Program-made: the position numbers and the translations under genes
The notes under the pieces: generated by a model
Database searches by the model: none
Seen by the model: the letters and a program-made list of their open reading frames with translations, nothing else
Told to the model about the DNA's origin: nothing
Part shown: positions 170 to 63,330 of the stretch, one piece after another
How the letters are laid out: every line of letters starts with the position of its first letter
How positions within the stretch are numbered: the stretch's first letter is position 1
Source of the DNA: an uncultured Clostridia bacterium
GTDB taxonomy: Bacteria > Bacillota > Clostridia > Christensenellales > Borkfalkiaceae
Length of the DNA: 64,000 nucleotides
Direction: 5' to 3'
Assembly: GCA_947626575.1 (NCBI GenBank)
Contig: CANQSR010000011.1
Span: 944 to 64,943, forward strand

Positions 170-835
170 GCAGGACAAAGGCTTCCCCCCACGGGGGGAA
201 GCTGTCACCATGTGACTGATGAGGGGTTTTGGACGTTCACGTCATTTCGAACCCCACAGGGGTGAGAAATCTCAAAGGACGCGATTCCTCACTTCGTTCG
301 GAATGACGTATGGAAGCCCCGCTCGTTCGGACAGGACGCTGCCTATGCGCCCCACCCCCTTGGGGAGTCCCCCTCCCATGGGAGGGGGTAGAAGCGGCCC
401 GTCGCTTTGGCATGGCGGGTCGTCGCCCCGCTCGTTCGGACAGGACGGGTACACCACCCCCTCCCCTACCCTGTCTCACGCGGGTAGAACCCCGCGTTAC
501 TTCGCCTTCGGCTCGTGGCGACCTTCGATAATAAATAGAAGCCTCGGTCGGACGGTCACCGTTCGCGCGGCAAATGCGCTCACTCACCGCAAAACGCCGC
601 CCACAGCACACTGTGCTGATGTGCGAGAATTGCGTTTTGCGACCCTCAGGTATAAGGGGGGAGGCGACGGGAAGCCCGAATAAGCGACCCGATTACCTCA
701 ACTGCGGAGAGGCGAGCAGAACGAGGAGCGCGCGGCTTCCCGCACGGAGCGTACTTTATCGTACGTGACGAAGGGAAACGTAAGCGCGACAAAGTTATGC
801 GACGTCTATACGCAGTTCGCATTACGAAGTCCAAC
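170..835. repeat. Mosaic repeat block
   Basis: It contains a C6/G6 hairpin (181-202), M1 (241-308), M2 (minus orientation, 474-644) carrying the 54-bp M8 at 499-552, and M15 (minus orientation, about 690-835). Confidence 0.85.
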
Positions 836-840
836 CAAAC

Positions 841-871
841 AAGGTGCGGAGTCGAATCGACTCCGCACCTT
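841..871 (-). terminator. Hairpin terminator after the lipoprotein gene
   Basis: AAGGTGCGGAGTCG-AAT-CGACTCCGCACCTT, a perfect 14-bp stem. Confidence 0.6.
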
Positions 872-889
872 GCTCAAAGGGGGGGAAAG

Positions 890-2686
890 TTACGTCAAAT
901 CCACGCTGTGCCTGACGTAGCCTGTGGAATTGGCCATGAGATTATATTCGACGATGAACTGCACCGTCTCGTGCGCGGGGATCTTCACCGTGTAATGGAA
1001 AGCCCTGTCAAAGGCGTCTCCAAAGCCCTCGTTGCCCCGCTGGCATGCGAAATATTCCGTTCCTGCGACGACCGAGCCGTCGATGTTTCTGACAAACGTC
1101 ACCAGCCCGCCCGTCAGATTGATGTGGACCGTCACCGTGCGCTCGCTTTCGCCGCGGTTGGTGAACGTAAATACGTCCTGGTAGTCCTTCATCCAATTGC
1201 CGATGTTGGCAAGTTTGCCGCGGGTATCATACCACCCGCAACCAACCGTGACGGGCTTTTGATCGGGCCCAAAGACGGTGTGGAAGGAGGTCATGTCCGT
1301 GCCGACGGCTTCGGGGTGACCCTGCACGTTGATGTGCGTCACCCACTCTTCGAGCGTCTGTTCGTGCCGCGTCGAGGGGATCTCCGCACCCGGTTCACCC
1401 TCGGCGGGAACGTCGTCCATATAATAGTTGCTGAATGTGACGGGGAGCTTGCCTTCGGGCGTCGCATCGTTGAACACCCAGCTTGCGCTGTTATCCACCA
1501 CATACCCGACGTCCTGCCCGCAATGCACCACGCCGTACGCTTCGGGATCGGTGATGCCGAGGTGGTCGTCGCCGCCCTCCGTTCCGGGCGCGATCTTGGC
1601 GGGGTCGTCATACACATAGTAGGCGCCCTCGGCCTTTCCCACGACGTCGAAGAGTACCGCGCCGTTCTGGCAGTTGCCCGTCACGCGTTTATCCGCCGTA
1701 TCGCCCACGTTGGCGTTGGAAAAGGCGTCCGAAGTCGTGCCGCCGAACACATAGATGAATTTCCCTGCGGGGACACGGTAGGTTATCGGCTGGAAGCCCA
1801 AGAGCGGATAGTTGCCGCTGAACCCCATGAGCGCCTTCCAGCTCGCAAGCTGGCTCTCCGTAAACCCGCCCGGGTCGGGGATCCTGAATTTCAGGTTGTA
1901 AAACTGCGTCCACTCCTGTTCGCCGAAATAGGAGCCGTCTCCCGCACGCTGGTAGCCGATGTTCTTGACGGTGACGTACATGTCCGCGGTCCCCGTATTG
2001 CGTACGCGGTAGCCGTAGAACACGCCGGGGTTCATCTTATCGCTCTGCTGCTCCATCGTGAAAAACACGCTTTGGTCGGAGACATCCTGCCGTGTGATGC
2101 AGTGGTTGACGACCTGCGGGCCTTCGGTGAGCGCTTCGGGTGCGTTGCAATACACATAGAGCGTATCCGGACGCTTGACGTATTCGATGGGGGCGGGCCG
2201 CATGGGATCGGCGGGGTCGGAGGACTCCGTGGGGATCTTGCTCGCATCCGGCACCGCGCCGATCTCGAACGGCAGTTGCGCCGTATGGTTTTTGGCCGTC
2301 ACGGTGAGGCGGATCTTTTTCGAGGCGGGAACGATGCGCACATACACCGTATCGCCCGCTTCAAGCAAAATTTCAAAGCCCTTCTCCGAGGAGACGAGGA
2401 GCGTTCCGTCTTCGCCGTAAAACTCCACCTTCCGGATGCTGCTTGCCAAAAAACTTACGCTGTACGTATCCGTGAAGGGAGCCTTCATCTTGACCGTACA
2501 CGCCGCGCCTTCCTCGATGGTCTGAAAGGAGGAAAGCCGCACAACGGGAAGGTCTGCATGATCCTTTACGTCAAACCCGCCGTTTCCGCCGCCACCGCCG
2601 CCGCCCGTACAGGCGGAAGCCGCAAGGAGCGTAAACACCGCGGCGCATAAGAGCGCACCCTTCCTTCGCATATCGCGTCTCCTCAT
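890..2686 (-). CDS. Secreted lipoprotein of unknown function
   Basis: ORF 890..2782. I prefer the internal ATG at 2686 (MRRRDMRRKGALLCAAVFTLLAASAC). It has a signal peptide with a lipobox Cys followed by a Gly-rich linker, and a hairpin terminator downstream at 841-871. Confidence 0.7.
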   Translation of the reverse strand: MRRRDMRRKGALLCAAVFTLLAASACTGGGGGGGNGGFDVKDHADLPVVRLSSFQTIEEGAACTVKMKAPFTDTYSVSFLASSIRKVEFYGEDGTLLVSSEKGFEILLEAGDTVYVRIVPASKKIRLTVTAKNHTAQLPFEIGAVPDASKIPTESSDPADPMRPAPIEYVKRPDTLYVYCNAPEALTEGPQVVNHCITRQDVSDQSVFFTMEQQSDKMNPGVFYGYRVRNTGTADMYVTVKNIGYQRAGDGSYFGEQEWTQFYNLKFRIPDPGGFTESQLASWKALMGFSGNYPLLGFQPITYRVPAGKFIYVFGGTTSDAFSNANVGDTADKRVTGNCQNGAVLFDVVGKAEGAYYVYDDPAKIAPGTEGGDDHLGITDPEAYGVVHCGQDVGYVVDNSASWVFNDATPEGKLPVTFSNYYMDDVPAEGEPGAEIPSTRHEQTLEEWVTHINVQGHPEAVGTDMTSFHTVFGPDQKPVTVGCGWYDTRGKLANIGNWMKDYQDVFTFTNRGESERTVTVHINLTGGLVTFVRNIDGSVVAGTEYFACQRGNEGFGDAFDRAFHYTVKIPAHETVQFIVEYNLMANSTGYVRHSVDLT

Positions 2687-2932: not shown

Positions 2933-4351
2933 TCAGCCTTCGGGCGTGCGGTAGAAATAGAAATACGTTTCATCCTCGCCGCAGGGGCGCATCCCCGCCG
3001 CGAGCAGCATCGTGCGCGAACGCGCGTTCTCCTTGTAGCACTTGGCTTCCAGCCGTTCGAGGTTCAGCCGCGAGAAGGCATACGCGGCGTACCCGCAAAC
3101 GGCTTCGCGCGCATAGCCCATGCCCTCGTATTCGGGCAGAAGCCGCACGCCGATCTCGGCGCGCGCATCATAGCCGAAGCGGTGCAGGACGGCTTCTCCC
3201 ACCAGCATGTCCGAAAGGTAGATGCCCAAAGGCATCTCGCGGCGCTTCGCGAAGTCCTCCCGCGCGCTCTTCAAAAAGTAGGAATCGGCGGGCCGCCGCT
3301 TGCGGTCGCTCCGCCAATCGTACCCCCAATAGCGGTTGCGCACGACGTCCCCCGCAAGGCGCGCATAGGCCGCCTTATCGGCATCCTCAACGGGCTTCAA
3401 GACCAACCGCTCCGTCCTGAAATCGGGCAGGCGCATCACGAAGTCGATGGCGCGCTTGGGGGTGACGTTGTATTTATCCACGAGTTCGCACGGGCCGTAT
3501 TGCAATTTGGATTTGCGCAGGCCGAGGTCGCCCGCATCGTCCATGCGGTTGAGAAACCGCACCCCATCCCCGCAAAACGCCCGCGCAAACTGCCGCGCGA
3601 GGAAGGGATAGACGCCCTCGCATTCCCTGAGCGCCTTCTCGATGTGTACGACGATCATGTCGCCGCACCGCTCGCCCGCGGAGAAGCCGACGACCCTGCC
3701 CCCTGCGGTGAGGATTCCCGCCCGCATGTGCAATTCCTGCATGTGCGGCAAGACCGCATAGACCTCGTCGAGTTCCTCGTCCGCAAGCGGGCTTCCCTTC
3801 GCCCGCTGGGAGGCTTCGTATTCGTGTAAGAAGGCTTCAATGGCACCCATGTCCGAGGGTAAGGCCTCGCGGAACTGCCAATCGGGGTATAATTTTTCAA
3901 ATTTGCGCACGTGGTTGCGCTGGCCCGCGTACTTCTTCCCCGGATACTCCTTGAAATCTTCCGCGCGGTAGAGATAGTCCCGCCAGCGGCGGTTGTTGGT
4001 GACAAGCATCTCCGCATAGCGCGCCGTGAGCAGGGGCAGACGCTCCTTGGGGACGTTGGTATAGTGGATGCGCTCGCCCGTATCCCGCGCGCGCTCCTCG
4101 ATGGCGGCAACGGCTCGCATCTCCGCCTCCCCGTCCCCGGAGCGCGAGAGCGGGAAATGGTAATAGCACTTGCCCGCAAAGTACTCGCGCAGAACGAGGC
4201 AATCCCCGATGAAGGCATAGGCGGGCTTTAAGGCGTCGTACCACATGTATTGGAAGGCGAGCGAAAAATCGCTGATATGCCGCGTCTGCGCCGCAAAATA
4301 CGGCGCAAGCTCCTGCATGTTCTCCCTGTCGATCGGCTGAAAAAGTTCCAT
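2933..4351 (-). CDS. Two-domain acyltransferase: N-terminal DUF2156-like domain plus C-terminal RimJ/RimL-type GNAT
   Basis: 472 aa. The C-terminus (EAVLHRFGYDARAEIGVRLLPEYEGMGYAREAV...LERLEAKCYKENARSRTML) is a GNAT pattern. The N-terminal half resembles DUF2156 / lysyl-PG-synthase C-domain proteins, recognised by eye. Confidence 0.65.
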   Translation of the reverse strand: MELFQPIDRENMQELAPYFAAQTRHISDFSLAFQYMWYDALKPAYAFIGDCLVLREYFAGKCYYHFPLSRSGDGEAEMRAVAAIEERARDTGERIHYTNVPKERLPLLTARYAEMLVTNNRRWRDYLYRAEDFKEYPGKKYAGQRNHVRKFEKLYPDWQFREALPSDMGAIEAFLHEYEASQRAKGSPLADEELDEVYAVLPHMQELHMRAGILTAGGRVVGFSAGERCGDMIVVHIEKALRECEGVYPFLARQFARAFCGDGVRFLNRMDDAGDLGLRKSKLQYGPCELVDKYNVTPKRAIDFVMRLPDFRTERLVLKPVEDADKAAYARLAGDVVRNRYWGYDWRSDRKRRPADSYFLKSAREDFAKRREMPLGIYLSDMLVGEAVLHRFGYDARAEIGVRLLPEYEGMGYAREAVCGYAAYAFSRLNLERLEAKCYKENARSRTMLLAAGMRPCGEDETYFYFYRTPEG

Positions 4352-4364
4352 AAACCTGCCTGCG

Positions 4365-4498
4365 TTCCCAGACTCTCATATAAATGGAACGCCACCCCCT
4401 CACCGCCGCAAGGGCAGCGGCGGAGCTCCCCCTCAAGGGGGCGCCGAGAACACCCCTTCGCCCCCTCAGGAGAGCGTCGGGGATACCCATGTCCGCGG
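4365..4498. repeat. Mosaic repeat block (M11-type)
   Basis: CCACCCCCTCA..CGCAAGGGC..GCTCCCCCTCAAGGGGGCGCC recurs at about 9020-9085, 55290-55345 and 60755-60790. Confidence 0.7.
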
Positions 4499-4500
4499 TC

Positions 4501-8387: not shown

Positions 8388-8467
8388 GCGAATGCCGGGA
8401 AATCTTTCCCGCTTTTCATGTTTATCACAAAATTTTCGAAATATCCCCGCGCTGTTTGCTGCAAAAT

Positions 8468-8483
8468 TGTTTCATGTGAAACT
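8468..8483. promoter_or_regulatory. Degenerate parS-like site
   Basis: TGTTTCATGTGAAACT has 2 mismatches to the consensus. It lies 42 bp from the perfect site. Confidence 0.5.
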
Positions 8484-8509
8484 GTTCCCAAAAAATTTTC
8501 AAATTCCGA

Positions 8510-8525
8510 TGTTTCACGTGAAACA
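8510..8525. promoter_or_regulatory. parS centromere site (perfect 16-bp palindrome)
   Basis: TGTTTCACGTGAAACA matches the Firmicutes parS consensus TGTTNCACGTGAAACA. It lies about 2.4 kb from soj-parB. Confidence 0.8.
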
Positions 8526-8551
8526 TACAGCGCATAAAAATTTTTGCCCGC

Positions 8552-8592
8552 CGTGGATAGCAATGTGGATAATTTTGTGGAAATGTGGATAA
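8552..8592 (+). promoter_or_regulatory. Second DnaA-box cluster (4 co-oriented boxes in 41 bp)
   Basis: CGTGGATAG at 8552-8560, perfect TGTGGATAA at 8564-8572, TGTGGAAAT at 8576-8584, and perfect TGTGGATAA at 8584-8592. Confidence 0.65.
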
Positions 8593-8595
8593 CCC

Positions 8596-9312
8596 CTCAC
8601 TCGCCGCAGGGAAAATCATGTCATTCCGAACGGATGAGAGGAATCTCCTTATTATAATAAGGTGACCCTTCGGCAAGCTCAGGGTGACGGATTGGAGTCC
8701 CCACTCCCTGTATCCCTCTCCCCAAGGAGAGGGTAGGCCTCGCCACGCCCCCCAAGGGGGCGACGAGAGTGCAGCGACGATGTAGCCGTCTTTCTGAGCC
8801 GCATTGGCTTGGTTTTCAACGAACTGCCCATCCGCGAAGAATCTTATTGCGACCGCGTTCAATGTAGGCAGACTTCGTTTTTCGGGATGTTTCGCTTCGC
8901 TCAACATGACGAGAAATCTCAAAGCGAGATTCCTCACATACGTTCGGAATGACGCGATCTCCCCTTGCCCACCCCTTGAGGGGTGGGTGTCACCAAAGGT
9001 GACGGAAGGGGTGTCATACAAATACGCCACCCCCTCAGCCCCGCAAGGGCGCGGGTCAGCTCCCCCTCAAGGGGGCGCCAAGGATAAGGCCTCGCCGTCC
9101 CTAAGAGAACCCGAAGGCCCTCCCCCCGTTGGGGGGAGGGTGGCACGAGCAACGCGAGTGACGGATGGGGGGGGGAACGGACGGAAGAATGCCCCCCACC
9201 ACCGCCCTGCGGGCAGAGCCTCCCCCCATGTAGGGGTTGGCCTTTCACCCCCTACCTGTCCGCAAAGCGGACGTCCTCCCCCCTCAGGTATAAGGGTGGA
9301 GGCGTCTTCCCA
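8596..9312. repeat. Mosaic repeat block
   Basis: It contains M5(-) at about 8600-8745, M7(-) at 8783-8954, M6(-) at about 8955-9015, M11 at about 9020-9085, an M6-like unit at about 9125-9175, and M10 at about 9185-9250. Confidence 0.85.
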
Positions 9313-9315
9313 ATG

Positions 9316-9343
9316 AAAAATACCGCCGAGAGGCGGTATTTTC
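9316..9343 (-). terminator. Bidirectional hairpin terminator after cvpA
   Basis: AATACCGCC-GAGA-GGCGGTATT, flanked by an A-run on one side and a T-run on the other. Confidence 0.6.
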
Positions 9344-9431
9344 GCGATTTCACATTTTTTTGTTTTCACATTTTCAAATTTTGTATTTCGGCACTTTCGC
9401 ACTTTCGTATTATCGTATTCGTATTCTTCCG

Positions 9432-10007
9432 TTACAGGCGGTTGATGATCCGTCCGGGCAGGTTGGTCGCTTCAATGAACCACTCGGACGTGTAAATGGA
9501 CCTCACCACAACGCTCGATTGGATAAACTCGTTGATAAAATCCGCGTTGATCCAATGGCATACGGTAAGAAGCACGAGAATGAGGAGCAGGGCTTCGCCA
9601 AGACCCAATATTCCGCCCAAAATGCGGTCCGTCACGTTCAGCACTTTGGATTTTTCCACGAGGACGCGCGCTAACTTCCCGATGAGCCATGTGGCAAGTT
9701 TGGTGACGACGAGCAACCCGATAAAGCAGATGACGATGCTCAGCCAGCCCGCAAGCGTCTCGTTCCCCACGCCGTTCGCGATCGCAGTCGTCAGACCGAA
9801 CGAGGATTCCAACGCCGCCTGCAACGGCGTACACATGGAAAACGCGAGTACGACGGCAAGGAGCGTTCCGCCCAACTTACACACGCCGCGCACAAACCCG
9901 CGCGTACAGCCGATGATGAGGCCGATGAGGATGAGCGCGAAAAAGATGACGTCGAGGATCCAACCGCCGCCCGAACCGGCCATCGAGGCCTCGGCAAGCA
10001 AATTCAT
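9432..10007 (-). CDS. cvpA: CvpA-family membrane protein
   Basis: 191 aa with four hydrophobic helices. The N-terminal pattern WILDVIFFALILIGLIIGCTRGFVR is typical of the colicin V production protein family. Confidence 0.7.
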   Translation of the reverse strand: MNLLAEASMAGSGGGWILDVIFFALILIGLIIGCTRGFVRGVCKLGGTLLAVVLAFSMCTPLQAALESSFGLTTAIANGVGNETLAGWLSIVICFIGLLVVTKLATWLIGKLARVLVEKSKVLNVTDRILGGILGLGEALLLILVLLTVCHWINADFINEFIQSSVVVRSIYTSEWFIEATNLPGRIINRL

Positions 10008-10140: not shown

Positions 10141-10725
10141 ATGGAATACACCTTTCACTTCTACAACACGCTCGCCGAAACGGGGATCTTTCTCGCGCTT
10201 TCACGACTCCTCGGCCCCTGCAACGCGCCGCCCGTGGTCCTCTGCATCGGGAGCGACCTTGCCATCGGGGACAGCCTCGGCCCGCTCACGGGAACGCTTC
10301 TCCGCCGCGCGGGGTTCAGCGGCTATATCTATGGGACCTTAAAGACGCCCGTGACCGCCAAGGAGATCAAAAATATCGACGGCTTCCTGCGCAAGACGCA
10401 CCCGAAGAGCAAGATCGTCGCGGTGGACGCGGCCGTGGGGGAAGAGGCGGATATCGGGCTTCTGAAAGTGGTGGATGCCCCCCTCCGCCCCGGTTCTGGC
10501 GCGAACAAGCGGCTGGGCAAGGTGGGAGACGTCTCCGTCTTGGGCGTGGTGGCGAAAAAATCGGCGTTCTCTTACTCGCTTTTGAACCTTACGCGGCTGA
10601 ACATGGTCTACGGCATGGCCGAAACGGTGTGCGGCGCGCTCTCTCTTCTCGCATCCAAAAGCAGTTGGCGGGAGGAAAATGTTACGGGCGAACAGGAATG
10701 TTATCAGACGCGCGGTTTCGTGTAA
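10141..10725 (+). CDS. yyaC: Spore protease YyaC-like protein
   Basis: 194 aa. CIGSDLAIGDSLGPLTG and IVAVDAAVG match the YyaC/GPR-type protease family. An origin-proximal position near parB is the same as in Bacillus. Confidence 0.75.
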   Translation: MEYTFHFYNTLAETGIFLALSRLLGPCNAPPVVLCIGSDLAIGDSLGPLTGTLLRRAGFSGYIYGTLKTPVTAKEIKNIDGFLRKTHPKSKIVAVDAAVGEEADIGLLKVVDAPLRPGSGANKRLGKVGDVSVLGVVAKKSAFSYSLLNLTRLNMVYGMAETVCGALSLLASKSSWREENVTGEQECYQTRGFV

Positions 10726-10770
10726 TAAATTAACAAATTCACACGTCCCGCGAAATTTTTCTGTGTTTTC

Positions 10771-10799
10771 TTGACGAAATTATCGCGTTGGAATAAAAT
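10771..10799 (+). promoter_or_regulatory. SigA-type promoter of the 76-aa ORF
   Basis: TTGACG-N17-TAAAAT. Confidence 0.6.
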
Positions 10800-10832
10800 A
10801 ATGCTGACAAAATTCAAAAGGAGGGCAAAGCA

Positions 10833-11063
10833 ATGATCAAGACGACCAAGACCAAGACCTATGATACCGCGACCGCCGAGCTTGTCAAAAAGGTGACCGT
10901 CGGGACTTACGGCGACCCCGCCGGATATGAGATGACGATGTACCGCACTGCGGAAGGGGATTATTTCCTCTACACCTATGGCGGCGAGGCATCCGAATAT
11001 GCGACGGAAGCCATCAAGGCGTTCTCGAAAGCGGCCGCCAAGAAGTGGCTGGAAGAGAACTGA
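10833..11063 (+). CDS. Small hypothetical protein (76 aa)
   Basis: It has its own TTGACG-N17-TAAAAT promoter (10771-10799), an AGGAGG RBS, and a hairpin terminator at 11146-11180. Confidence 0.6.
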   Translation: MIKTTKTKTYDTATAELVKKVTVGTYGDPAGYEMTMYRTAEGDYFLYTYGGEASEYATEAIKAFSKAAAKKWLEEN

Positions 11064-11145
11064 CAACCGACAAAGGACTGCGCAAGAGGCCTGCACAAGC
11101 GACTTTCAACGAGAGACCGGCAAGGCCCGCAACAAGGAACAAAAA

Positions 11146-11180
11146 GATACCCGCACCCCCGTGGTGCGGGTCTCTTTTTT
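11146..11180 (+). terminator. Rho-independent terminator
   Basis: GATACCCGCAC...GTGCGGGTCTC followed by TTTTTT. Confidence 0.7.
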
Positions 11181-11184
11181 GGCG

Positions 11185-11570
11185 GGCGCATGGCCTACCC
11201 CCCTATGGGGGGGAAGGCTTGCTCTTGGCGCCCCTGAGAGGTCGCAAAACGCATTTCTCGCACATCAGCACGGTGTGCTGTGTGCGGCGTTTTGCGGTGA
11301 GTGAGCGCATTTGTAGCGCGAACGGTGACCGAACGCGGGGGTCTACCCGCGTGAGACGCTGGCGAGCGAAGCGAGACTGAGGGGTTTCGCATGTTCACGT
11401 CATTTCGAACCCCACGGGGGTGAGAAATCTCTAAGTTGAGATTCCTCACATACGTTCGGAATGACGTATGGAAGCCTTGGTCGTCGGAATGACGCGGGAA
11501 ACCCTTTCGGCCGCTTGCTTCGCTCGCGTCCACTTTCCCTAAAAGGGACAGCGAGAGGCTTTCCGCGCAA
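11185..11570. repeat. Mosaic repeat block
   Basis: It contains intact M2(+) at 11240-11356, M1 at 11399-11465, and an M9-like unit at about 11500-11560. Confidence 0.85.
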
Positions 11571-11603
11571 AACAACAGGGTCGCATTCTTGCGGCCCTGT
11601 TGC
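11570..11603 (-). terminator. Candidate terminator after jag
   Basis: On the minus strand: CAACAGGGCCGC-AAGAAT-GCGACCCTGTTG, then TTTTG. One mismatch in the stem. Confidence 0.5.
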
Positions 11604-11620
11604 TCAATCAATTGTTTTTC

Positions 11621-14233: not shown

Positions 14234-14289
14234 ATATCTCCTTGGGGACTGCGTATCGACTGAAAGTTTGTCCGCCTTGCCGGCGGGGC

Positions 14290-14771
14290 TTTTTTTCTAA
14301 TGGGAAGGGGGCAAGGCTTCCCCCCTTCGGGGCGGGTTACGACCTATCATGGACAGCAAGAGCGCGAAGGCCCCTCATCGCCGCCACTTCGTCATTTCGA
14401 ACCCCGCAGGGGTGAGAAATCTCAAAGGGCGAGATTCCTCGCTCCGCTACTTCGCCTACGGCTCGTGACGCGCTTAGATTACAATAGAAATCTCGCGCGG
14501 ACGGAATGACGCAAGGGGAAGGCTTTACGCAAACCCATTCTAAATTTCATGCGAATAACCAAAATCACAATTTTGGTTTTCGCCCTCAATTTGCGCGTCA
14601 AGCGCTTCTTGTCCGTTGGAACGTATGAGAGGATAACGCATGTTAAGGCGCGGAAGTATATTTCCCTCACGGGAATTTGTTTGGGGTAAGTTGATGCACA
14701 CCCCCCACCCTACCCTCCCCCCTCTGGTAAAATGGGGGAGGCGAGAGGAACACCCAAACAAATTTCGTGAA
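14290..14771. repeat. Mosaic repeat block splitting yidD from yidC
   Basis: It contains M1 carrying an M8 variant (14391-14510, insert at 14449-14501), M3 at 14551-14623, and the TIR-bounded M4 at 14668-14769. Confidence 0.85.
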
Positions 14772-15074
14772 CTATATCAGCCACTTCTTTTTCCAGAACA
14801 CCTCCGGCGCGGGGTCGATTCCCCCCTTGGAGAAAGGGTTGCAGCGCAAAATCCGCCACGCACCGAGCAGAATGCCGATGACTGCGCCGTAATTATTGAT
14901 ACATCGCTTGGTGTATTCCGAACATGTGGGCGTATAGAGGCAGGTGTGATGCGAAAGACGGCGCTGGTAAAAGGCGATCATGCGGATGCAGACGCCCCGC
15001 AAAAAGGGACGGAATACGCGGCGGCGGAGATACCGCCTGTTTCTCCGGACAAGTTCACGGATTGAGATCTTCAC
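14772..15074 (-). CDS. yidD: Membrane protein insertion efficiency factor YidD
   Basis: Motifs are IAFYQRRLS, TPTCSEYTKRCI, RILRCNPFSKGGIDP. The start is uncertain. GTG 15074 has AAGGAA 8 nt upstream, and the ORF-track ATG is at 15110. It overlaps the rnpA 3' end. Confidence 0.8.
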   Translation of the reverse strand: MKISIRELVRRNRRYLRRRVFRPFLRGVCIRMIAFYQRRLSHHTCLYTPTCSEYTKRCINNYGAVIGILLGAWRILRCNPFSKGGIDPAPEVFWKKKWLI

Positions 15075-19383: not shown

Positions 19384-19384
19384 G

Positions 19385-19900: not shown

Positions 19901-19957
19901 ATGACATTTTTTTCTCCCTTCCGCCTGTTATACTCATGCGGAGAAGGAGAATTTTTT

Positions 19958-44959: not shown

Positions 44960-44970
44960 ACCGATAAACA

Positions 44971-45000
44971 AAGCTCCCCTGTGTTTGCAGGGGAGCTTTT
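44971..45000 (+). terminator. Rho-independent terminator
   Basis: AGCTCCCCTG-loop-CAGGGGAGCT, then TTTT. Confidence 0.75.
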
Positions 45001-45420
45001 CCATGTCCTTGGCGAAAAGAGGCCTTGGCGCCCCTATTAGGGGAGCCGGCGAGGCCATGGCCTCGACTGAGGGGTTTCGGATGTTTACGTCATTCCGCGC
45101 GAAGCGTTTACGTCATTCCGTCCGAAGCCTCTATGCGCCAATCCGAGCGAGGCCTCTATACGTCATTCCGAACGAAGTGAGGAATCTCTCCTTTGAGATT
45201 TCTCACCCCTATGGGGTTCGAAATGACGTCCGAGGCGCTTACGTCATTCCGACCGAGGCCTCTATGCGTCATTCCGAGCGAAGCACGAGCCGCAGGCGAA
45301 GTGGCGCAGTCGAGGAATCACTTGGTTTTAATAATGTGACCCTTCGACAGGCTCAGGGTGACGAATGTACCCCCGCTCCCCAAATCCGCTACGGCGGCAG
45401 GGACCGCCTTAGGCCCCCCG
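45001..45420. repeat. Mosaic repeat block
   Basis: It contains an M11-like start, several GTCATTCCG cores, M1 at 45162-45227, and an M5 fragment at about 45320-45370. Confidence 0.8.
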
Positions 45421-45483
45421 ACCCCGCCGCAGAACCCTCAAAAAATTTTTTTCTGTTTTTTTCCGAAATACATAAAAAAACGG

Positions 45484-45512
45484 TTTACAAAAAAAATAAA
45501 TCTTAATATAAT
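45484..45512 (+). promoter_or_regulatory. SigA-type promoter of the zinc-ribbon/comFC unit
   Basis: TTTACA-N17-TATAAT in an AT-rich tract. Confidence 0.65.
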
Positions 45513-45552
45513 TTATTAGCCTGTAAGAGGGCGGCCAGCGGAGGATAGAAAA

Positions 45553-47495: not shown

Positions 47496-47496
47496 T

Positions 47497-48296
47497 TAAG
47501 TTTCGTAAATTTCTATCATATAGAAGCCCTTTAAGACTAAGGGCATAGAAATTTACGATAGAAACCCGCGTTGGCGCCTTAACGCTCTTGGCTCTCTTCT
47601 TCGTTCCAACGGACAAGAAGCGCTTGACGCGCAAATTGAGGGCGAAAACCAAAATGCGATTTTGGTTATTCGCAATAGATTTAGAATGGGTTTGCGGGAA
47701 GCTTTCCCCAAGGGGAAGACCTGCCCCTACTTGTGGGGGCGCAAAACGCAATTCTCGCACATCAGCACAGTGTGCTGTGGGCGGCGTTTTGCGGTGAGTG
47801 AGCGCATTCGCCGCGCGAACGGTGACCGAACGCGGGGTTCTACCCGCGTGAGAGGGTGGCGCGGCTTTGCCGCGTCAGGTGGGGGAAGCCTCCTCGCTGT
47901 CCCTCTTAGGGAAAGTGGCGCGAAGCGCCGAAAGGGTTTTCCCTCATACCGACCCCGAACGCAGTGAGCGGGGAGTGTATCCTGAGCGGAGAGGTATCAT
48001 GGAACCGAATGAGTTAAAGATTCACTCACTCCACTTCGCTTCGTTCGGAATGAGGCCGAAAGGGTTTCACCCCTTAGTCTCGGCGGTGGCCCACGTCATT
48101 CCAACGACCGTAGGGAGAGTCTCGGCCGGTGGCCTACGTCATTCCGAGGAGCGGAGCGACGAGGAATCTCGCTTTTAGAGATTTCTCACCCCTATGGGGT
48201 TCGAAATGACGTGCGGACAGGTAGGGGGTTGACGAAATGACGTGCGGACAGGCAGGGAGGTTGCCGAAATGACGTGCGGACAGGTAGGGGGTGCCT
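47497..48296. repeat. Mosaic repeat block
   Basis: It contains the M12 hairpin at 47497-47560, M3(-) at about 47590-47670, M2(+) at 47738-47853, M13 at about 47940-48060, M1 at 48138-48210, and three 31-32-bp tandem units at 48203-48296. Confidence 0.85.
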
Positions 48297-51955: not shown

Positions 51956-52000
51956 CGGCCGTTTCCCGGCGTTTTCGGCGCAAAAATCAAAAAATTTTTT

Positions 52001-52030
52001 GTAAACCGTTGTGAAACGGTTTACTTTTTT
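52001..52030 (+). terminator. Rho-independent terminator of dus
   Basis: GTAAACCGTT-GTGA-AACGGTTTAC, then TTTTTT. Confidence 0.8.
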
Positions 52031-52048
52031 ATTCCGGCATGTTATAAT
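52020..52048 (+). promoter_or_regulatory. Strong promoter-like element 830 nt upstream of gyrB
   Basis: TTTACT-N17-(TGt)TATAAT, immediately after the dus terminator. No ORF lies before gyrB. Confidence 0.55.
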
Positions 52049-52129
52049 GACCCTGTCTCGCGCGCGTGCGCGCTATATAGATTGATATACAGTATAACAC
52101 AATGAACTTGCGCGCGGGCGCGCTATGTG

Positions 52130-52860
52130 AGGGAAAGGTTATTCCCCTCGCTGTCCCGGAAAGGGAAAGTGGGCGCGAGCGGCCGAAAGGGTTTTCACGT
52201 CATTTCGAACCGCAGGGGTGAGAAATCTCAAAGAACGAGATTCCTCACTTCGTTACTTCGTCTTCGGCTCGTGGCGACCTTCGATAATAAATAGATGCCT
52301 CGGTCGTTCGGAATGACGTATTAGGCCGAAAGGGTTTCAAAACCCCTCTGTCACTCGTAAACTCGTGACATCTGTCTCACGCGGGTAGAACCCCGCGTTC
52401 GGTCATCGTTCGCGCTACAAATGCGCTCACTCACCGCAAAACGCCGCCCACAGCACACCGTGCTGATGTGCGAGAAGTGCGTTTTGCGACCTCAAAGGGG
52501 CGACGAGACCTGCCCCTTGCTAAGGGGGCGGGTGGCGCGGCTTTGCCGCGTCAGGTGGGGGTAGGGCTTCCCCAATTATTTGCCTTAGGCGGAATTCACT
52601 TCCGCCGACCGCCCGCACATTCTTTGTTGTCTAAGGGCGTCACGAGCGCAAAGCGCGAAGTAGGGCGACCCAATTTGCAGAGCCCCCTGTCTGCTTGTTG
52701 TCTGCGAGAACATCGCATCGGGACCAAGCCCGTAAAAATAAAAACCAAAATCGAATCACGGAAATTTGTTTTAGGGCGGTTGATATGCACCCCCCACCCC
52801 ACCCTCCCCCCTTTGGTCAAAAGGGGGAGGCAAATAGGAGGCAAAACAAATTTCGTGAAA
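52130..52860. repeat. Mosaic repeat block upstream of gyrB
   Basis: It contains M1::M8 (about 52199-52317, insert at 52255-52308), M9(-) at about 52320-52372, intact M2(-) at 52375-52491, M14 at about 52570-52700, and M4 at 52757-52857. Confidence 0.85.
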
Positions 52861-52875
52861 ACATAGGAGTGTTTT

Positions 52876-54789: not shown

Positions 54790-54908
54790 CCCTTGCCCAC
54801 CCCTTGAGGGGTGGGTGGCACGGCTTCGCCGTGACGGAAGGGGTGTCATATATCTTGCCCACCTTAGACGGGTGGGTGGCACGGCTTCGCCGTGACGGAA
54901 GGGGTGGC
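54790..54908. repeat. Two tandem M6 units between the gyrB stop and the DUF559 start
   Basis: CTTGCCCACC..GGGTGGGTGGCACGGCTTCGCCGTGACGGAAGGGGTG occurs twice. Confidence 0.85.
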
Positions 54909-55265
54909 ATGATGAATGAACTTTACAATCCCAAGCTGATACAAAACGCCAAGTCATTGCGCAAAGGAATGACAAAGGAAGAGCGCAAGCTGTGGTATAC
55001 GTTCCTTCGTTATCTTCCCGTCAAATTTGTGCGTCAAAAAGCTCGTGGTTTTTACATCGCGGATTTTTATTGTGCGGAAGCGAGGTTGGCCATAGAATTG
55101 GACGGATCTCAACACTTTGAAGAAGCGGGCGAACGGCGCGACTTAATACGGGATGCCTTTTTTTCGGCACACGGGATTCGCGTTGTGCGATATTCCAACT
55201 ACGATATTGCAATGCACTATGATGTTGTAAAAGCGGATATTTTGAAGCAGTTGGGATTGGATTGA
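54909..55265 (+). CDS. DUF559 (Vsr-like PD-(D/E)xK) endonuclease-domain protein
   Basis: 118 aa with MTKEERKLWYTFLR...FVRQKARGFYIADFYC...LAIELDG. Clearly AT-richer than its neighbours by eye. The start codon and SD lie in the end of an M6 repeat. Confidence 0.8.
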   Translation: MMNELYNPKLIQNAKSLRKGMTKEERKLWYTFLRYLPVKFVRQKARGFYIADFYCAEARLAIELDGSQHFEEAGERRDLIRDAFFSAHGIRVVRYSNYDIAMHYDVVKADILKQLGLD

Positions 55266-55269
55266 CTTC

Positions 55270-56006
55270 TCTGCCGCATAAAGAGAACGCCACCCCCTCA
55301 GACCCGCAAGGGCGCGGGCCAGCTCCCCCTCAAGGGGCAGCCAAGAAGGCCGGCCGCGAAACCCCATTCCCCAATCGCTTGCCTTAGCCCGAATTTACTT
55401 CGGGCGTGGGCGACCCAATTTGCAGAGTCCTGTCTGCTTGTTGTCCGCGAGAACATCTCATCGGAACCAAGTCCGTAAAAATAAAAAGCAAAATCGTCTC
55501 ACGGAAATTTGTTTTGGGGGCGGTTGATGTACACCCCCCACCCTACCCTCCCCCCTTTGGTAAAAAGGGGGAGGCAAATAGGAAGCAAAACAAATTTCGT
55601 GAACACCTTCTCAAATCACTGCGAATAACCAAAACCACGCTTTTGGTTTTCGCCCTCAATTTGCCGGCTTGCGGCCTCTTGTCCGCGAGAACATCTCATC
55701 GGAACCAAGTCTGTAAAAATAAAAAGCAAAATCGTCTCACGGAAATTTGTTTTGGGGGCGGTTGATGTACACCCCCCACCCTACCCTCCCCCCTTTGGTC
55801 AAAAGGGGGAGGCAAATAGGAAGCAAAACAAATTTCGTGAACACCTTCTCAAATCACTGCGAATAACCAAAATCACGCTTTTGGTTTTCGCCCTCAATTT
55901 GCGCGGTGCGCTTGTTGTCCGCGAGAACATCTCATCGGAACCAAGTCCGTAAAAGCAAAACCCACAATCGACCCACGGGCATTTTGTTGCACAACAAAAT
56001 GCCGTG
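55270..56006. repeat. Mosaic repeat block upstream of gyrA, including a 2.3-copy tandem array of period about 237 bp
   Basis: It contains M11 at about 55290-55345, M14 at about 55370-55445, tandem composite units starting at 55443, 55681 and 55917 (with M4 at 55500-55601 and 55738-55839), and a terminal TIR-like hairpin at 55974-56006. Confidence 0.9.
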
Positions 56007-56027
56007 AAAAAATCATAGGAGTTTAAT

Positions 56028-58661: not shown

Positions 58662-58739
58662 AGAAAGCGGACGGATTTTAAGCGGGGGAAAGGGCAATGA
58701 GACCGCGTTTCCCCATACCATGTCCGCGGACATGGCTTC

Positions 58740-59150
58740 AAAAACACAGAAAAAGAGCCGAGGCCCCGCCCCGGCTCTTTGCTTATGTTTTGTGCATTTT
58801 GCCGCCCCTATGGGGGACGGCAAAGCTCTACCCCCTCCTTGGGGAGGGGGATTCAGGGAGTGGGGATTATTCCCCACCACAGTCACGCTCACGCGTGACA
58901 GCTCCTCCCCGGGGAGGCGCTTTGGGAAACCCTTATCGGCCCGATACGTCATTCCGAAACGAAGTGAGGAATCTCGTTCTTTGAGATTTCTCACCCCTAC
59001 GGGGTTCGAAATGACGTGAACCCACATGGCGCTTTGGGAAACCCTTATCGGCCCGATACGTCATTCCGAAACGAAGTGAGGAATCTCGTTCTTTGAGATT
59101 TCTCACCCCTACGGGGTTCGAAATGACGCAAGAGGGACGGTGAGGCGTTT
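58740..59150. repeat. Mosaic repeat block with a perfect 101-bp tandem duplication
   Basis: It contains an M5 fragment at about 58830-58870. The segments 58916-59016 and 59028-59128 are identical and each holds an M1 unit. They are separated by 11 bp. Confidence 0.9.
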
Positions 59151-59164
59151 TTTCTTGCCTCTTC

Positions 59165-60545: not shown

Positions 60546-60900
60546 ACGCATATTTGCGTCGCAATACTTCGTCATACTGCGTTTTTCTTGGTCACGTACG
60601 GGAAAGTACGCTCCCTGCGAAAAGCCTCGTATTCCTTGTCTTGCTCGCAACTCTGCGTTTATGATGAACTCGGATGAGTTTCGAAAATTTCTATCATTTA
60701 GAAACCTCTTAAAAATAAGGGCATAGAAATTTTCGAGACGATTTGTTCCCTTGGCGCCCCTTTGAGGGGAGCTGCCCCGCGGTCTTGCGGGGCTGAGGGG
60801 TTTCGGAAACCCTTCCCCAAGGGGAAGACCTGCCCCTACTTGTGGGGGCGGGTGGCGCGGCTTTGCCGCGTCAGGTGGGGGTAGGCCTTCACCCCCCCAA
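60546..60900. repeat. Mosaic repeat block between grpE and dnaK
   Basis: It contains M15(+) from 60546, the M12 hairpin at about 60676-60745, then M11-like and M2-flank-like segments. Confidence 0.8.
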
Positions 60901-60945
60901 AAAATCAAACCAAAAAAATCTGAAATCAAAAGGAGTGAATATATT

Positions 60946-62736
60946 ATGAGTAAGGTAATCGGTATCGACTTAGGAACAACCAATTCGTGCGTGGCGGTGA
61001 TGGAAGGCGGCGAGCCTGTGGTCATCGCGAATGCGGAGGGCAGCCGCACGACCCCTTCCGTCGTCGCGTTCCAAAAGGACGGCTCCCGCGTCGTGGGGCA
61101 GGTCGCAAAGCGTCAGGCGGTCGCCAACCCCGATAAGACCGTCATCTCCATCAAACGCAAGATGGGGTCGGATTATAAAGTGAAGATCGACGAAAAATCC
61201 TATTCTCCGCAGGAGATCTCCGCCATGATCCTCTCCAAACTCAAACAGGACGCGGAGGCCTATCTCGGCGGCAAAGTGACGGACGCCGTCATCACCTGCC
61301 CCGCTTACTTCACCGACGCACAGCGGCAGGCCACCAAGGATGCGGGGAAAATTGCGGGCCTCAACGTGCTTCGTATCATCAACGAACCCACGGCGGCTGC
61401 GCTCTCTTACGGCCTCGATAAGGAGAAGGAAAACAGCAAGGTCATGATCTATGACCTCGGCGGCGGCACCTTCGATGTCTCCATCCTTGAAATCTCCGAC
61501 GGTGTGTTCGAAGTCCTCGCGACCAACGGCAACAATATGCTCGGCGGCGACGATTTCGATAAGCGGCTCATGGATTACATGGTGGATGAATTCAAGAAGA
61601 GCCACGGCGTGGACCTCTCCAAGGACAAGATGGCCATGCAACGCCTCAAAGAGGCGGCGGAGAAGGCCAAGATCGAACTCTCCGGCATGAACCAGACCTC
61701 CGTCTCCCTTCCCTTCATCTCCATGACGGACGCGGGTCCCGCGCACCTCGAACTTGATATCACGCGCCAGAAATTCGAAGCGCTGATTTCCGACCTCATC
61801 GAAAAGACGGCCGAACCCATGCGTCTCGCCATGAAGGACGCCGGCCTCTCCTATAACGACATCGATAAAGTCATCCTCGTGGGCGGCTCGACGCGCGTTC
61901 CCGCCGTCGTTGCCAAGGTCAAAGAGATCACGGGCAAGGAGCCGTTCAAGGGGATCAATCCCGATGAGTGCGTCGCCATCGGCGCGGCTATCCAGGGCGG
62001 CGTTCTGACGGGCGAAGTCAAGGACGTCCTTCTTCTCGACGTCATGCCGCTCTCGCTCGGCATCGAGACGCTCGGCGGCGTGTTTACCCGCCTCATCGAC
62101 CGGAATACGACCATCCCCGTCAAGAAATCGCAGGTATTCTCCACGGCGGCGGATAACCAGACGAGCGTGGAGATCCACATCTTGCAGGGCGAACGCGAGT
62201 TCTGCCGCGATAACAAGACGATGGGCCGCTTCATGCTGACGGGCATTGCGCCCGCGCCCCGCGGCATCCCGCAGATCGAAGTCACATTCGACGTCGATGC
62301 CAACGGCATCGTCCACGTCGAGGCGAAAGACCTCGGCACGGGCAAGTCCACGGATATCACCATCACGTCGTCCACCAACCTCTCGGAGGATGAGATCAAC
62401 AAGGCGGTGAAGGATGCGGAGCAGTACGCCGAAGAGGATAAGAAGCGCAAGGCCAAGGTAGATGCGAAGAACAAGCTCGACGGCCTCATCTTCTCCGTGG
62501 AGCAGACCATCAAGGACAGCGAGGGCAAGCTCTCCGATGAGGACAAGGCGACCTTGCAGTCGGCGGTCGACGAGGCCAAGAAAGACCTCGAAGCGGACGA
62601 CGAGGAGAAGTATAACGCGGCGTTCGAAGAACTTTCGAAGAAGATCCAGCCCGTAATCGCCAAGCTGTACCAGCAGAATGCGGGCGCGCAGGGCGGCGAA
62701 GATCCCAACGCCGGCGGCGACGAATTCCATCAGTAA
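60946..62736 (+). CDS. dnaK: Molecular chaperone DnaK (Hsp70)
   Basis: 596 aa with [23 protein letters not shown] and [13 protein letters not shown]. Confidence 0.97.
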
Positions 62737-62739
62737 AGG

Positions 62740-63330
62740 TTTCGCGCGATTTCTTTTCTGCGAAAATAAATCCGCGCGAGGGAAATGTGCGTTGACGCCT
62801 TAATGGGCTTATCCTCTCATCCGTTCCAGCGGACAAGAAGCGCTTGACGCGCAAATTGAGGGCGAAAACCAAAATTGTGATTTTGGTTATTCGCAGAAAA
62901 TCAGAACGTTCACGAAATTTGTTTGGGCAACCTCATGCCTCCCCCCTTTTACCAGAGGGGGGAGGGTAGGGTAGGGGGTGTACATCAACGAACCCCAAAC
63001 AAATTTCCGTGAGGGAAATGTGCGTTGATGCCTTAACATGCGTTATCCTCTCATACATTCCAACGGACAAGAAGCAGGCAGGGTTCTGCAAATTGGGTCG
63101 CCCACGCCCGAAGTAAATTCGGGCTAAGGCAAGTAATTGGAAGCCCTACCCCCAACGGGGGGGAGGGTGGCACGAGCAACGCGAGTGACGGATGGGGGGT
63201 AAAACTAACTCCGTCCCCCCACCACCGCCCTGCGGGCGGAGCCTCCCCCCCAAGGGGTAGGCCTTCGCGCTTTTCAAGCAAAAAAGTAAAATCGTATCAC
63301 GGAAATTTGTTTTCCAAAACAAATTTCGTG
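62740..63330. repeat. Mosaic repeat block between dnaK and dnaJ
   Basis: It contains M3(-) at about 62815-62890, M4(-) at 62911-63011, M14(-) at about 63060-63140, an M6-like unit at about 63150-63200, M10 at about 63205-63265, and an empty TIR hairpin at 63298-63330. Confidence 0.85.

Follow-up and report, generated by a model that had tools for sequence, protein, structure and literature searches.

A noticeable part of many bacterial genomes is taken up by repetitive extragenic palindromic (REP) sequences, bacterial interspersed mosaic elements (BIMEs), neisserial intergenic mosaic elements (NIMEs) and BoxC repeats. Among these, we know of neither a mobilising enzyme nor an origin for repeats of the CGTC and BoxC types. 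Here we analyse a 64-kb stretch of DNA from an uncultured Clostridia species (contig CANQSR010000011.1, positions 944–64,943; the whole stretch is referred to as the window), in which a mosaic of short hairpin-forming repeats fills the spaces between core genes and one class of these repeats brackets a small gene for a DUF559 nuclease. The nearest described counterpart of the mosaic is the NIME arrays, in which hairpins are mixed with other repeat families and which, as of 2007, had not been observed outside Neisseria (PMC1797815). Their dRS3 hairpins correspond to CGTC-1 of the CGTC-tagged REP superfamily, for which mosaic arrays mixed with other repeats were also noted; the survey of this superfamily (Di Nocera, De Gregorio and Rocco 2013) spans five phyla, does not mention Firmicutes and found no dedicated transposase (PMC3733652). 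In BoxC/PIT/TMECO repeats (Holder et al. 2015), a C-rich arm and a G-rich arm are followed by another G-rich block, and the three can form an intrastrand triplex; the repeats are intergenic, show no strand bias, often occur as inverted pairs, are linked to rearrangements and were found in Enterobacteria and Cyanobacteria (PMC4666352).

The window is an origin-proximal core region of the chromosome (58% GC), with true reading frames told by a GC content at third codon positions of about 0.8. Its repeats are flanked by unique core genes (parB/parA, ftsH, jag, yidC, dnaN, PEPCK, H+-PPase, cysS, alaS, gyrB, gyrA, grpE and dnaK), as a preliminary description made from the sequence had stated. Self-BLAST recovers 10,604–10,905 repeated bases (about 17% of the 64 kb), and five first-order Markov resamples of the window yield 0. 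By our gene list, 178 repeated bases lie within genes, 98% of the repeated DNA is intergenic and 64% of the intergenic DNA of the window consists of repeats. These occur, in both orientations, in 22 of the 28 spacers that measure 100 bp or more and in a block that precedes the first gene, which agrees with the twenty-two blocks first reported; the coding density is about 74% by the same gene list, below the original estimate of about 80%. We distinguished 17 seed families with 2–12 copies each at about 70–97% identity (8.1 kb in union). The string GTCATTYCGAR occurs 49 times (6.0 expected), and GTGACGGAWGGGGTG occurs 10 times (0.23 expected). The modules also occur elsewhere: at non-orthologous sites in related metagenome-assembled genomes (MAGs), in IMG/VR stretches and in metagenomes. 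The combinatorial, REP/BIME-like mosaic that had been described is thus genuine. It is a dense intergenic repeat system whose general kind (REP/BIME/NIME/BoxC-like) is known but whose host group is new.

At least 15 module types (M1–M15) had been proposed, but these collapse into a few superfamilies, and several are variants of one architecture. In this architecture, class I, an outer hairpin with C-rich and G-rich arms and a TTGA-type (TTGA/TCAA) loop is combined with an inner hairpin and a tail rich in G. A covariance model built from 13 copies (R1) finds 36 full-length matches in the window (E < 0.01), of which the plus strand has 16 and the minus strand 20. All lie outside coding sequence, and they take in M5, M6, M10, M11 and the cores of two further units. 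In IMG/VR, a pattern scan places class I in at least 78 stretches (103 exact pattern matches), and the covariance model gives 182 matches at E ≤ 1e-6. The consensus of these copies, GCCTTCCCCTTGAGGGGAAGGTG-(inner hairpin)-GGATGAGGTG, is near-invariant in its outer parts, with inner stems that are wholly different between copies. Among 150 independent copies aligned to the model, 98.7% of cells are paired, and compensatory double changes occur in 11 of the 14 pairs (207 cells), a level reached by 0 of 500 shuffles and lost in slid controls; the alignment is fitted to the model and so favours pairing, although the same pattern is plain in the raw sequences. G-T/U wobble pairs are nearly absent from the stems of these copies, which points to pairing at the level of DNA rather than RNA. 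The covariation argues that class I structure is under selection, and that this selection acts on DNA. Predicted folding of single-stranded DNA gives z-scores of −3.1 to −6.0 for M1, M2, M5, S16 and the IR-L form of class I described below.

In (pro)phage contigs (IMG/VR loci L029–L106), class I usually lies in the short gap between two co-oriented genes and reads CACCTCATCC…GGGGAAGGC, followed by a Shine–Dalgarno (SD) sequence and ATG 5–8 nt on. The inner loop is often TCA, that is, TGA on the gene strand, and the upstream open reading frame (ORF) may terminate inside the module. A BLAST search of M7 plus M5 against PLSDB plasmids gave no match, and literature searches with nucleotide and peptide strings of the modules returned only primers and noise.

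Class I resembles the BoxC/PIT/TMECO repeats in its succession of C-rich, G-rich and G-rich blocks (PMC4666352), and to that extent is less foreign to the literature than had been supposed. M5 (CCCTCTCC-TTGG-GGAGAGGG-ACTAA-GGGAGTGG) satisfies, by our reading, the purine-motif triad rule; allowed triads read from the sequence number 8 of 8 in M5, 7 of 8 in the viral class I consensus and 6 of 8 in the first IR-L copy of the window, the triplex itself being predicted only. Where BoxC has a second loop of 3 nt, most class I modules carry an additional hairpin, which covaries. The strict TMECO pattern (CCCTCNCCC-N3-6-GGGNGAGGG-N3-GGGNGAGGG) has 0 matches in the window and R1 scores a non-significant 8 bits on E. 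coli BoxC, and we therefore treat the relationship, as judged from sequence, as resemblance and not membership.

The second large group, class II, comprises about 35 units in the window of the form CGTC-ATT(C/T)CGA(A/G)-N5-32-(C/T)GAG(A/G)AAT-CTC, all of them intergenic and with no transposase within the window. The stem begins ATT(C/T)C…G(A/G)AAT and consists of 5 bp, a tandem G·A and a further 1–2 bp around an interior of 5–32 nt. The CGTC tag is present in 28 of 29 window hairpins (M13 uses CCTC) and the CTC tail in 24 of 29. In M1 (8 dimers), two such hairpins form an inverted pair, the interior being CCCC-N3-GGGG in one and CGAAG in the other, and M7 and M13 are longer segments, of 70–300 bp, bounded by inverted class II hairpins. 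The hairpin recurs in more than 120 IMG/VR stretches with GC contents from 34% to 66%, where the tags are TGTC (122) and CGTC (56) and the commonest copy is GTCATTCCGAGCGAAGCGAGGAATC. A scan of GTDB representatives with the M1 left arm gave one match, in a Flavobacteriales MAG (JAESRW010000258.1; positions 3892–3924 of locus L005, GC 43%); it is an exact copy of the 33-nt hairpin (GTCATTTCGAACCCC-NNN-GGGGTGAGAAATCTC), for which we estimate a chance expectation of about 1e-5. The match being the only one, the species of the window is not among the representatives scanned. Classes I and II seldom co-occur outside the genome of the window. We considered that DUF559 might also serve the CGTC hairpins and dropped the idea, as no DUF559 gene lies near class II in 1.08 Mb of IMG/VR loci.

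Many class II hairpins (for example, in M7 at 23688–23700 and 23722–23734, and in IMG/VR copies) hold GCGAAGC together with 5′-CGAG/5′-CGAG tandem G·A motifs. As DNA, GCGAAGC forms a mini-hairpin of unusual stability, and both features are found more typically in structured single-stranded DNA than in RNA.

The GTCATTCCGA hairpins of class II share with the published CGTC-tagged REP superfamily (PMC3733652) an unpaired CGTC (TGTC/CCTC) tag ahead of the stem, a stem that opens with A-T and T-A pairs, a short unpaired tail, a mostly inverted-pair arrangement and an intergenic location with no dedicated transposase nearby. They depart from it in tail (CTC rather than CCA), in interior (5–32 nt rather than a loop of 4–5 nt) and in stem (broken by tandem G·A rather than 8–9 bp). 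The likeness to NIMEs (PMC1797815) lies at the level of the array: short ATTCC…GGAAT-type hairpins interleaved with many 50–200-bp repeat families, beside core genes and with array lengths that differ between relatives. In the largest block of the window (23252–24869, 1.6 kb), for example, CGTC hairpins alternate with M5, M7 and class I modules. Unlike the 20-bp dRS3 (ATTCCC-N8-GGGAAT), however, the window hairpin (CGTC-ATTCCGA(R)…(Y)GAGGAAT-CTC) has tandem G·A in its interior and a loop that varies; most units form inverted dimers, where NIMEs have regular dRS3-RS-dRS3 arrays; the host here is a MAG of Clostridia; and a second, unrelated module class is tied to DUF559. By sequence, the window hairpins and dRS3 appear related through the CGTC classification only. 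Taken as arrays or as hairpins, the repeats thus have published relatives, contrary to the initial impression of an undescribed family. The mosaic is modular and non-coding like pneumococcal BOX elements and miniature inverted-repeat transposable elements, and M7 has ends resembling terminal inverted repeats (GTCATTCCGAG…CTCAGAATGAC), as do M13 and the class I pairs; it has, however, no sequence similarity to those systems, no target-site duplications were seen and no insertion sequence with matching terminal repeats was found in the sequence examined.

Between gyrB and gyrA lies a 118-aa gene (54909–55265, plus strand), already annotated by gene callers in public assemblies, that encodes a Vsr-like PD-(D/E)XK nuclease of the DUF559 family (Pfam PF04480, 91.6 bits against a cut-off of 20.6; PDB 3HRL ‘endonuclease-like protein’, E = 7e-12). 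All 27 columns that are invariant in an alignment of 28 DUF559 sequences are present in the window protein, and D52, E63, D65 and H69 are invariant throughout. The 3HRL protein comes from N. gonorrhoeae. The preliminary description had reported no transposase or RAYT gene and had proposed a search of the genome for DUF559 genes. We likewise found no Y1_Tnp domain or RAYT in the window ORFs tested (64 kb), but this nuclease-type gene proved to lie within the window itself, bracketed by modules M6 and M11. On its 5′ side, two tandem class I copies of the type CTTGCCCACCCCTTGAGGGGTGGGTGGCAC…GTGACGGAAGGGGTG (IR-L; 54795–54845 and 54857–54906, plus strand) extend from the gyrB stop up to the DUF559 start (54790–54908), and on its 3′ side lies the inverted counterpart CACCCCCTCAG…AGCTCCCCCTCAAGGGGCAGCC (IR-R; 55291–55342, minus strand). 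The IR-L tail GGAAGGGGTG occupies the expected SD position of the gene, and a G-rich tail, GGA(T/A)G(A/G)GGTG, stands 5–6 nt ahead of the ATG in the DUF559 loci of the window and four other lineages.

Inverted modules bracket DUF559 in five of five lineages inspected (the window, L007, L024 and the loci of proteins P0153 and P0214). The identical 114-aa protein P0153 and its identical modules recur in at least four distinct gene neighbourhoods, and in these loci sequence identity ends precisely at the outer hairpins. The terminal modules vary in number and order, with tandem triplicates on both sides in L020 and IR-L/IR-R/IR-L alternation in L024. Among 69 metagenomic DUF559 loci with enough flanking sequence, 61 have a module within 120–150 nt and 32 show the plus-upstream/minus-downstream arrangement; module density falls from 127 per 23 kb (within 150 nt) to 2 per 86 kb (beyond 600 nt), an enrichment of about 200-fold at the gene. 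Many DUF559 homologs are on contigs of 0.5–2 kb, as expected for repeat-flanked genes. The enrichment of ‘DUF559 domain-containing protein’ among products of predicted programmed-inversion targets (PMC9881135) fits inverted repeats around the gene. The solo class I copies M6 and M11 of the window are 82–94% identical to the DUF559 flanks of L024, from another species, and gene-less IR-L plus IR-R pairs at 8967–9079 and from 40605 look like internal-deletion derivatives of a DUF559 element. Our literature search found no paper on a hairpin-flanked DUF559 mobile unit.

Two sets of loci differ in the sequence that flanks the element. L014 consists of the left neighbourhood of L013 and the right neighbourhood of L012, joined at the P0153 element, and reflects either a rearrangement, with two copies of the element having recombined, or misassembly into a chimera across the repeat. 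L020 and L021, which encode P0214, have a common right flank and different left flanks (mutS/miaB in one, prophage genes including a P22-like portal and a helix-turn-helix gene in the other); the junction is exactly at the outer edge of IR-L, of which there are three copies in L020 and one in L021.

Hairpin repeats also lie beside ycjD, the DUF559 gene of E. coli (L227; K-12, NC_000913, 1351040–1351830). Upstream of it is a 43-nt perfect hairpin, CACCTCATTCTGAC…GTCAGAATGAGGTG, with ATGAGGTG arms, and downstream are a degenerate and an intact BoxC/TMECO repeat plus a duplicate of the 3′ end of ycjD itself. The fabI-ycjD-sapF arrangement is present in 3,346 of 5,426 complete E. coli genomes; in those that lack it, the match stops at query position 788, about 40 bp from BoxC, and in O157:H7 (L308) a TetR/RND cluster takes the place of the ycjD segment. 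The paper on BoxC/TMECO does not mention DUF559, ycjD or an endonuclease (PMC4666352).

The mosaic is a recent, lineage-specific expansion, to judge from its nearest relatives. The gyrB-gyrA spacer measures 1,239 bp in the window, compared with 310 bp in L006 (GyrB 97% identical), 625 bp in L007 (93%) and 15 bp in L009 (90%). The spacer after spoVT (block 47496–48290) measures 795 bp, compared with 50 bp in L006. R1 counts 36 class I modules in the 64-kb window and 1, 4 and 0 per approximately 22 kb in L006, L007 and L009, respectively. The comparison of orthologous spacers that the preliminary description had suggested finds compact or shorter spacers in the relatives, which have few modules in common with the window and carry these at different places. 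That relatives with the same core genes have compact spacers indicates that the elements are dispensable.

We propose, with a probability of roughly 0.55 for the explanation as a whole, that the blocks have built up from short, non-coding repeats of several unrelated hairpin-forming families, which have recently proliferated in this lineage, and that a DUF559 mini-element is the source or mobiliser of class I. Repeats would pile up beside and inside one another wherever insertion is tolerated, and this piling-up would produce the combinatorial mosaic. Class I would be the terminal inverted repeat of a mini-element of about 0.45 kb with DUF559 as its sole gene, one copy of which would lie between gyrB and gyrA; solo modules and gene-less pairs would be its non-autonomous derivatives. 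The nuclease would recognise and nick the structured module (as a hairpin, cruciform or intrastrand triplex), and repair or recombination templated by another copy would then duplicate or relocate modules, gene-less ones being mobilised in trans. Growth of the mosaic would come from further rounds of insertion, beside or inside hairpins already present, and from local duplication in tandem. The enzyme that mobilises class II would lie outside the window, and M2, M3/M14/S16 and M12 would be lineage-specific long hairpins or tandem units expanded by local duplication.

We infer mobilisation by DUF559, and the nick-and-repair route, by the same reasoning that tied RAYTs to REP sequences. In REPINs, REPtrons and BIMEs, as here, a small single gene is flanked by inverted copies of the abundant hairpin repeat of the genome, gene-less copies are in large excess and hairpins form inverted doublets (M1 in the window). 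The differences are that the window gene encodes a PD-(D/E)XK nuclease where the REPtron gene encodes a Y1 HUH RAYT, and that the window tag is CGTC, with no GTAG tag.

Several observations weigh against this explanation. The cutting and moving of modules by DUF559 is its inferred step, and the gene could instead serve host repair and be no more than a place where modules tend to insert: VsrA of Caulobacter, the one DUF559 protein for which our literature search turned up functional data, is interpreted as a T:G mismatch-repair nickase (PMC12907096). In IMG/VR (650 kb), 103 class I modules have no adjacent DUF559 and there is one distant DUF559 homolog only, which implies that modules persist, and perhaps spread, without the gene in cis. 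For the class I subtypes with CCCCCC, CCCTCTCC or CCTCCCCCC outer stems, the 64 kb of the window contain no cognate DUF559 gene. Four independent junctions of DUF559 mini-elements show no target-site duplication, and no clean pair of filled and empty sites was found, the spacers of the nearest relative (L006) being too diverged to align. By exact-protein look-up, the DUF559 protein of the window occurs in one genomic context only, and one IR-R copy folds no better than shuffled sequence.

The strongest competing explanation, although an unlikely one, is that a classical enzyme encoded in another part of the genome moves all modules in trans, those of class I among them, and is either a RAYT/IS200-type HUH transposase that acts on single-stranded hairpins or an IS110-type recombinase that, as in Neisseria, targets hairpins, and that DUF559 is a passenger or an attractor of insertions. 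REPs and REPINs provide the precedent, M1 having the REPIN architecture of two inverted hairpins; viral contigs are rich in class I without having DUF559 beside it; the analysis covered no more than 64 kb of the genome; and dRS3 hairpins are integration targets of a phage recombinase in Neisseria (PMC1797815). However, no gene for such an enzyme was found in the window or beside modules in any locus examined, and the CGTC-REP survey came to a similar result for dedicated transposases (PMC3733652). The roughly 200-fold concentration of class I at DUF559 and the bias towards inverted orientation are hard to explain for a passenger gene and mirror the argument that linked RAYTs to REPs.

It is somewhat more doubtful that the modules are structural DNA of the BIME, NIME or BoxC kind, maintained by the host, and that they spread and are rearranged through ordinary recombination and slippage, with no enzyme dedicated to them. 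Such DNA could provide sites for gyrase or nucleoid proteins, form recombination-promoting arrays or punctuate replication and transcription. Tandem duplications of modules (two, three and three copies; the 112-bp M1 unit; the 238-bp units) would be accounted for, as would the synteny breakpoints at module edges in L014 (as a chimera) and in L020 compared with L021; in E. coli, moreover, BoxC/TMECO loci are rearrangement hotspots (PMC4666352), and about 38% of genomes lack the ycjD-BoxC segment next to fabI. Against a host function stands the dispensability of modules in close relatives, whose spacers are compact and hold few or none, and the conservation of outer-stem and tail nucleotides across unrelated phage and host contexts points to a specific recognition factor and not to a generic structure.

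We consider it improbable that the modules act as RNA, whether as intercistronic stabilisers, processing sites, SD-sequestering hairpins or multicopy small RNAs. Many IMG/VR class I copies do stand 5–8 nt upstream of an SD sequence and start codon and keep the same orientation towards the gene, and the GAGGTG tail of IR-L coincides with the SD position of DUF559; M15 always follows a stop codon in gene orientation; and M5 has weak, sub-threshold matches to whalefall-1 RNA. The latter were found in a relaxed Rfam search, in which M5 only came up, below threshold, for whalefall-1 and Poribacteria-1; five M5 copies (8697–8735, 23892–23930, 24566–24604, 41813–41851 and 58829–58867) match whalefall-1 (RF01762) at 21–23 bits, compared with a gathering score of 37. 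At gathering thresholds, the window and 13 module-rich loci gave nothing but one tRNA, and none of the modules matched an Rfam family. Modules also occur in both orientations within the same block of the window, and the covariation is almost purely Watson–Crick, the virtual absence of G-U pairs being atypical of RNA helices. The whalefall-1 consensus, a CUCUCCUUGGGGAGAG hairpin plus GGGUGAGGA, itself resembles BoxC-type modules, and whalefall-1 may be such a repeat.

An artefact of assembly or binning, with collapsed or chimeric MAG repeats, would fit the tendency of contigs of the same species to stop within repeat blocks (as is expected if the repeats are multi-copy genome-wide) and the single 112-bp M1 unit of L004, but we give it negligible weight, since 3.6–16 kb of the region, several blocks included, are matched at 99.94–100% identity in four independent ENA assemblies and the same module types occur in hundreds of unrelated contigs. 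Several ENA/NCBI metagenome assemblies encode GyrA and GyrB proteins identical to those of the window, and the GyrB homologs that bear names are labelled as ‘Clostridia bacterium’, ‘Clostridiales’, ‘Oscillospiraceae’ or ‘Firmicutes’ MAGs. As for the M1 unit, the window and three assemblies have two M1 dimers 112 bp apart (58948–59127) where L004 has a single copy (3534–3634), which is either a real copy-number polymorphism or an assembly collapse; in view of the latter, this difference was excluded from the evidence for mobility.

Besides classes I and II, the window holds longer local units. M2 is a 60-nt hairpin with a DNA folding z-score of −6.0, and M12 is a further unit seen within the window. 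M3, M14 and S16 form tandem units of about 238 bp, two of which follow M14 upstream of gyrA (55480–55955, within 55343–56027), and related arrays elsewhere; each unit pairs an S16 long hairpin with an M3-like hairpin. S16 is a long AT-rich stem with a class I-like core in its loop, and in L007 a class I module likewise sits within a long hairpin, which hints that hairpin tips are preferred landing sites. The M2 and M3 cores have 0 matches in IMG/VR and thus look lineage-specific. A role for M3 as a leader or riboswitch was rejected because its copies face gene 3′ ends as often as 5′ ends. M15 begins (A/C)(C/T)GCGTATA and lies directly after a stop codon in three cases and 6 nt later in one, always in gene orientation (window 20912–21060, plus strand, and 674–815, minus strand; L006 11915–12080; L007 11915–12020). 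In L007, M15 is followed by a second copy of the last approximately 30 nt of gyrB, as if its insertion had displaced and re-created the 3′ end of the gene.

The blocks show how freely these units combine. The first (170–889) contains class I (180–226), an M1 dimer (241–307), S17, F2, M2 (553–645) and the reverse-complement M15 at 674–815. A solo class I module of IR-R type (M11; 4393–4445) lies in 4352–4500. At 8388–9431, a pair of CGTC hairpins (8620/8953) encloses reverse-complement M5 and M7, followed by the gene-less pair at 8967–9079 and a second-subtype pair at 9117–9242. The block at 10726–11620 has M2 (11237–11356) and an M1 dimer (11399–11465), and that at 14234–14979 has an M1 half (14391–14421), F2, M3 (14542–14668) and S16 (14666–14771). 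M2 (19449–19572), class I (M10; 19623–19672), a CGTC hairpin (19709–19750) and reverse-complement M5 share 19384–19900. The M15 copy that opens 20912–21484 stands right after the stop of the gene at 19901–20911 and is accompanied by class I at 21098–21153 and 21201–21244 and by an M2 half. The 1.6-kb block (23252–24869) includes M2, F2, M9, two M5 copies, M13, three M7 copies (23670–23845, 24110–24282 and 24359–24534) and class I at 24042–24095 and 24282–24335; M5, an M1 half, M9, class I (26316–26369) and M7 (26393–26566) follow at 25882–26708. Four class I modules (31397–31445, 31457–31504, 31561–31604 and 31926–31978), S17 and a tandem-like M14/M3/S16 array (31778–32364) lie at 31301–32405.

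In the second half of the window, the block at 36245–36514 holds an M1 dimer (36318–36384) and partial CGTCATTT repeats; 38327–38757 holds M13, a CGTC hairpin (38467–38491) and an M7-like unit ending at 38663; and 40430–40853 holds M13, the gene-less class I pair that begins at 40605–40651 and M2 (40696–40818). Reverse-complement M5, an M1 dimer (41890–41956) and an M5 fragment occur at 41748–42421, and an M1 dimer (45162–45227), a CGTC hairpin (45268–45319) and an M5 fragment at 44960–45552. The spoVT block comprises an M12 hairpin, reverse-complement M3, M2 (47735–47857), M13 and an M1-like dimer (48138–48210). It runs into a tandem triplet (48205–48295) directly upstream of a murJ-like gene, three copies of GAAATGACGTGCGGACAGG with a unit of about 31 nt, (T)TGACGAAATGACGTGCGGACAGGTAGGGGG, each of which includes the GAAATGACG half of a CGTC hairpin. 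A CGTC pair (52199/52317), F2, M9, M2, class I (52508–52557) and M14/S16 lie at 51956–52875. Further on, the two M1 dimers (58948–59015 and 59060–59127) share 58662–59164 with an M5 fragment; an M12 copy (60677–60736) and class I at 60753–60800 and 60828–60877 lie at 60546–60945; and 62737–63331 contains a reverse-complement M3/S16/M14 array (62778–63140) and a class I pair (63143–63199 and 63215–63262).

Other features of the window adjoin these blocks. Beside the repeats in the ftsH-cvpA spacer, a DnaA-box-like cluster (8540–8620, with three TGTGGATAA copies within about 50 bp at around 8560–8610) is accompanied by an AT-rich stretch at 9300–9440 and is possibly oriC; dnaN lies at 15599–16693 on the minus strand, and no dnaA gene was recognised within the window. 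A direct repeat of about 66 bp, formed by the 3′ end of the PEPCK gene and its terminator (23224–23290 and 25925–25990), brackets a 2.6-kb segment with 1.6 kb of repeats and two ORFs, one of 70 aa with an XRE-like helix-turn-helix (24870–25082, minus strand) and one of 232 aa that is lipoprotein-like and of lower GC content (25183–25881). By its layout, this segment looks like an insertion with target duplication.

These results place a NIME-like mosaic in a Firmicute, far outside the groups in which such arrays were described. They also provide a new, testable feature, the DUF559 mini-element, in which a 118-aa nuclease gene is consistently bracketed by repeats and is the candidate enzyme for one class of them. 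If DUF559 does not drive the modules, there is still a lineage-specific burst of repeats that has made intergenic DNA about a quarter of a core chromosomal region. If it does, a very large family of ‘unknown function’ would gain a function, and rearrangement hotspots in E. coli and gut Clostridia would be explained, as would the fragmented metagenome assemblies of abundant gut lineages and many spurious ORFs in databases. Tentatively, and at rather less than even odds, we further suggest that DUF559 nucleases are the dedicated enzymes of widespread, previously unrecognised mini mobile elements, whose double-hairpin termini, BoxC/PIT-like and possibly triplex-forming, spread gene-less. This would amount to a REPtron-like system in which a PD-(D/E)XK nickase takes the role of the HUH transposase; the system would be active in Clostridia and the phages of these bacteria and possibly ancestral to ycjD plus BoxC in E. 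coli, and would explain the origin of BoxC-type repeats and the ‘genomic instability’ linked to them.

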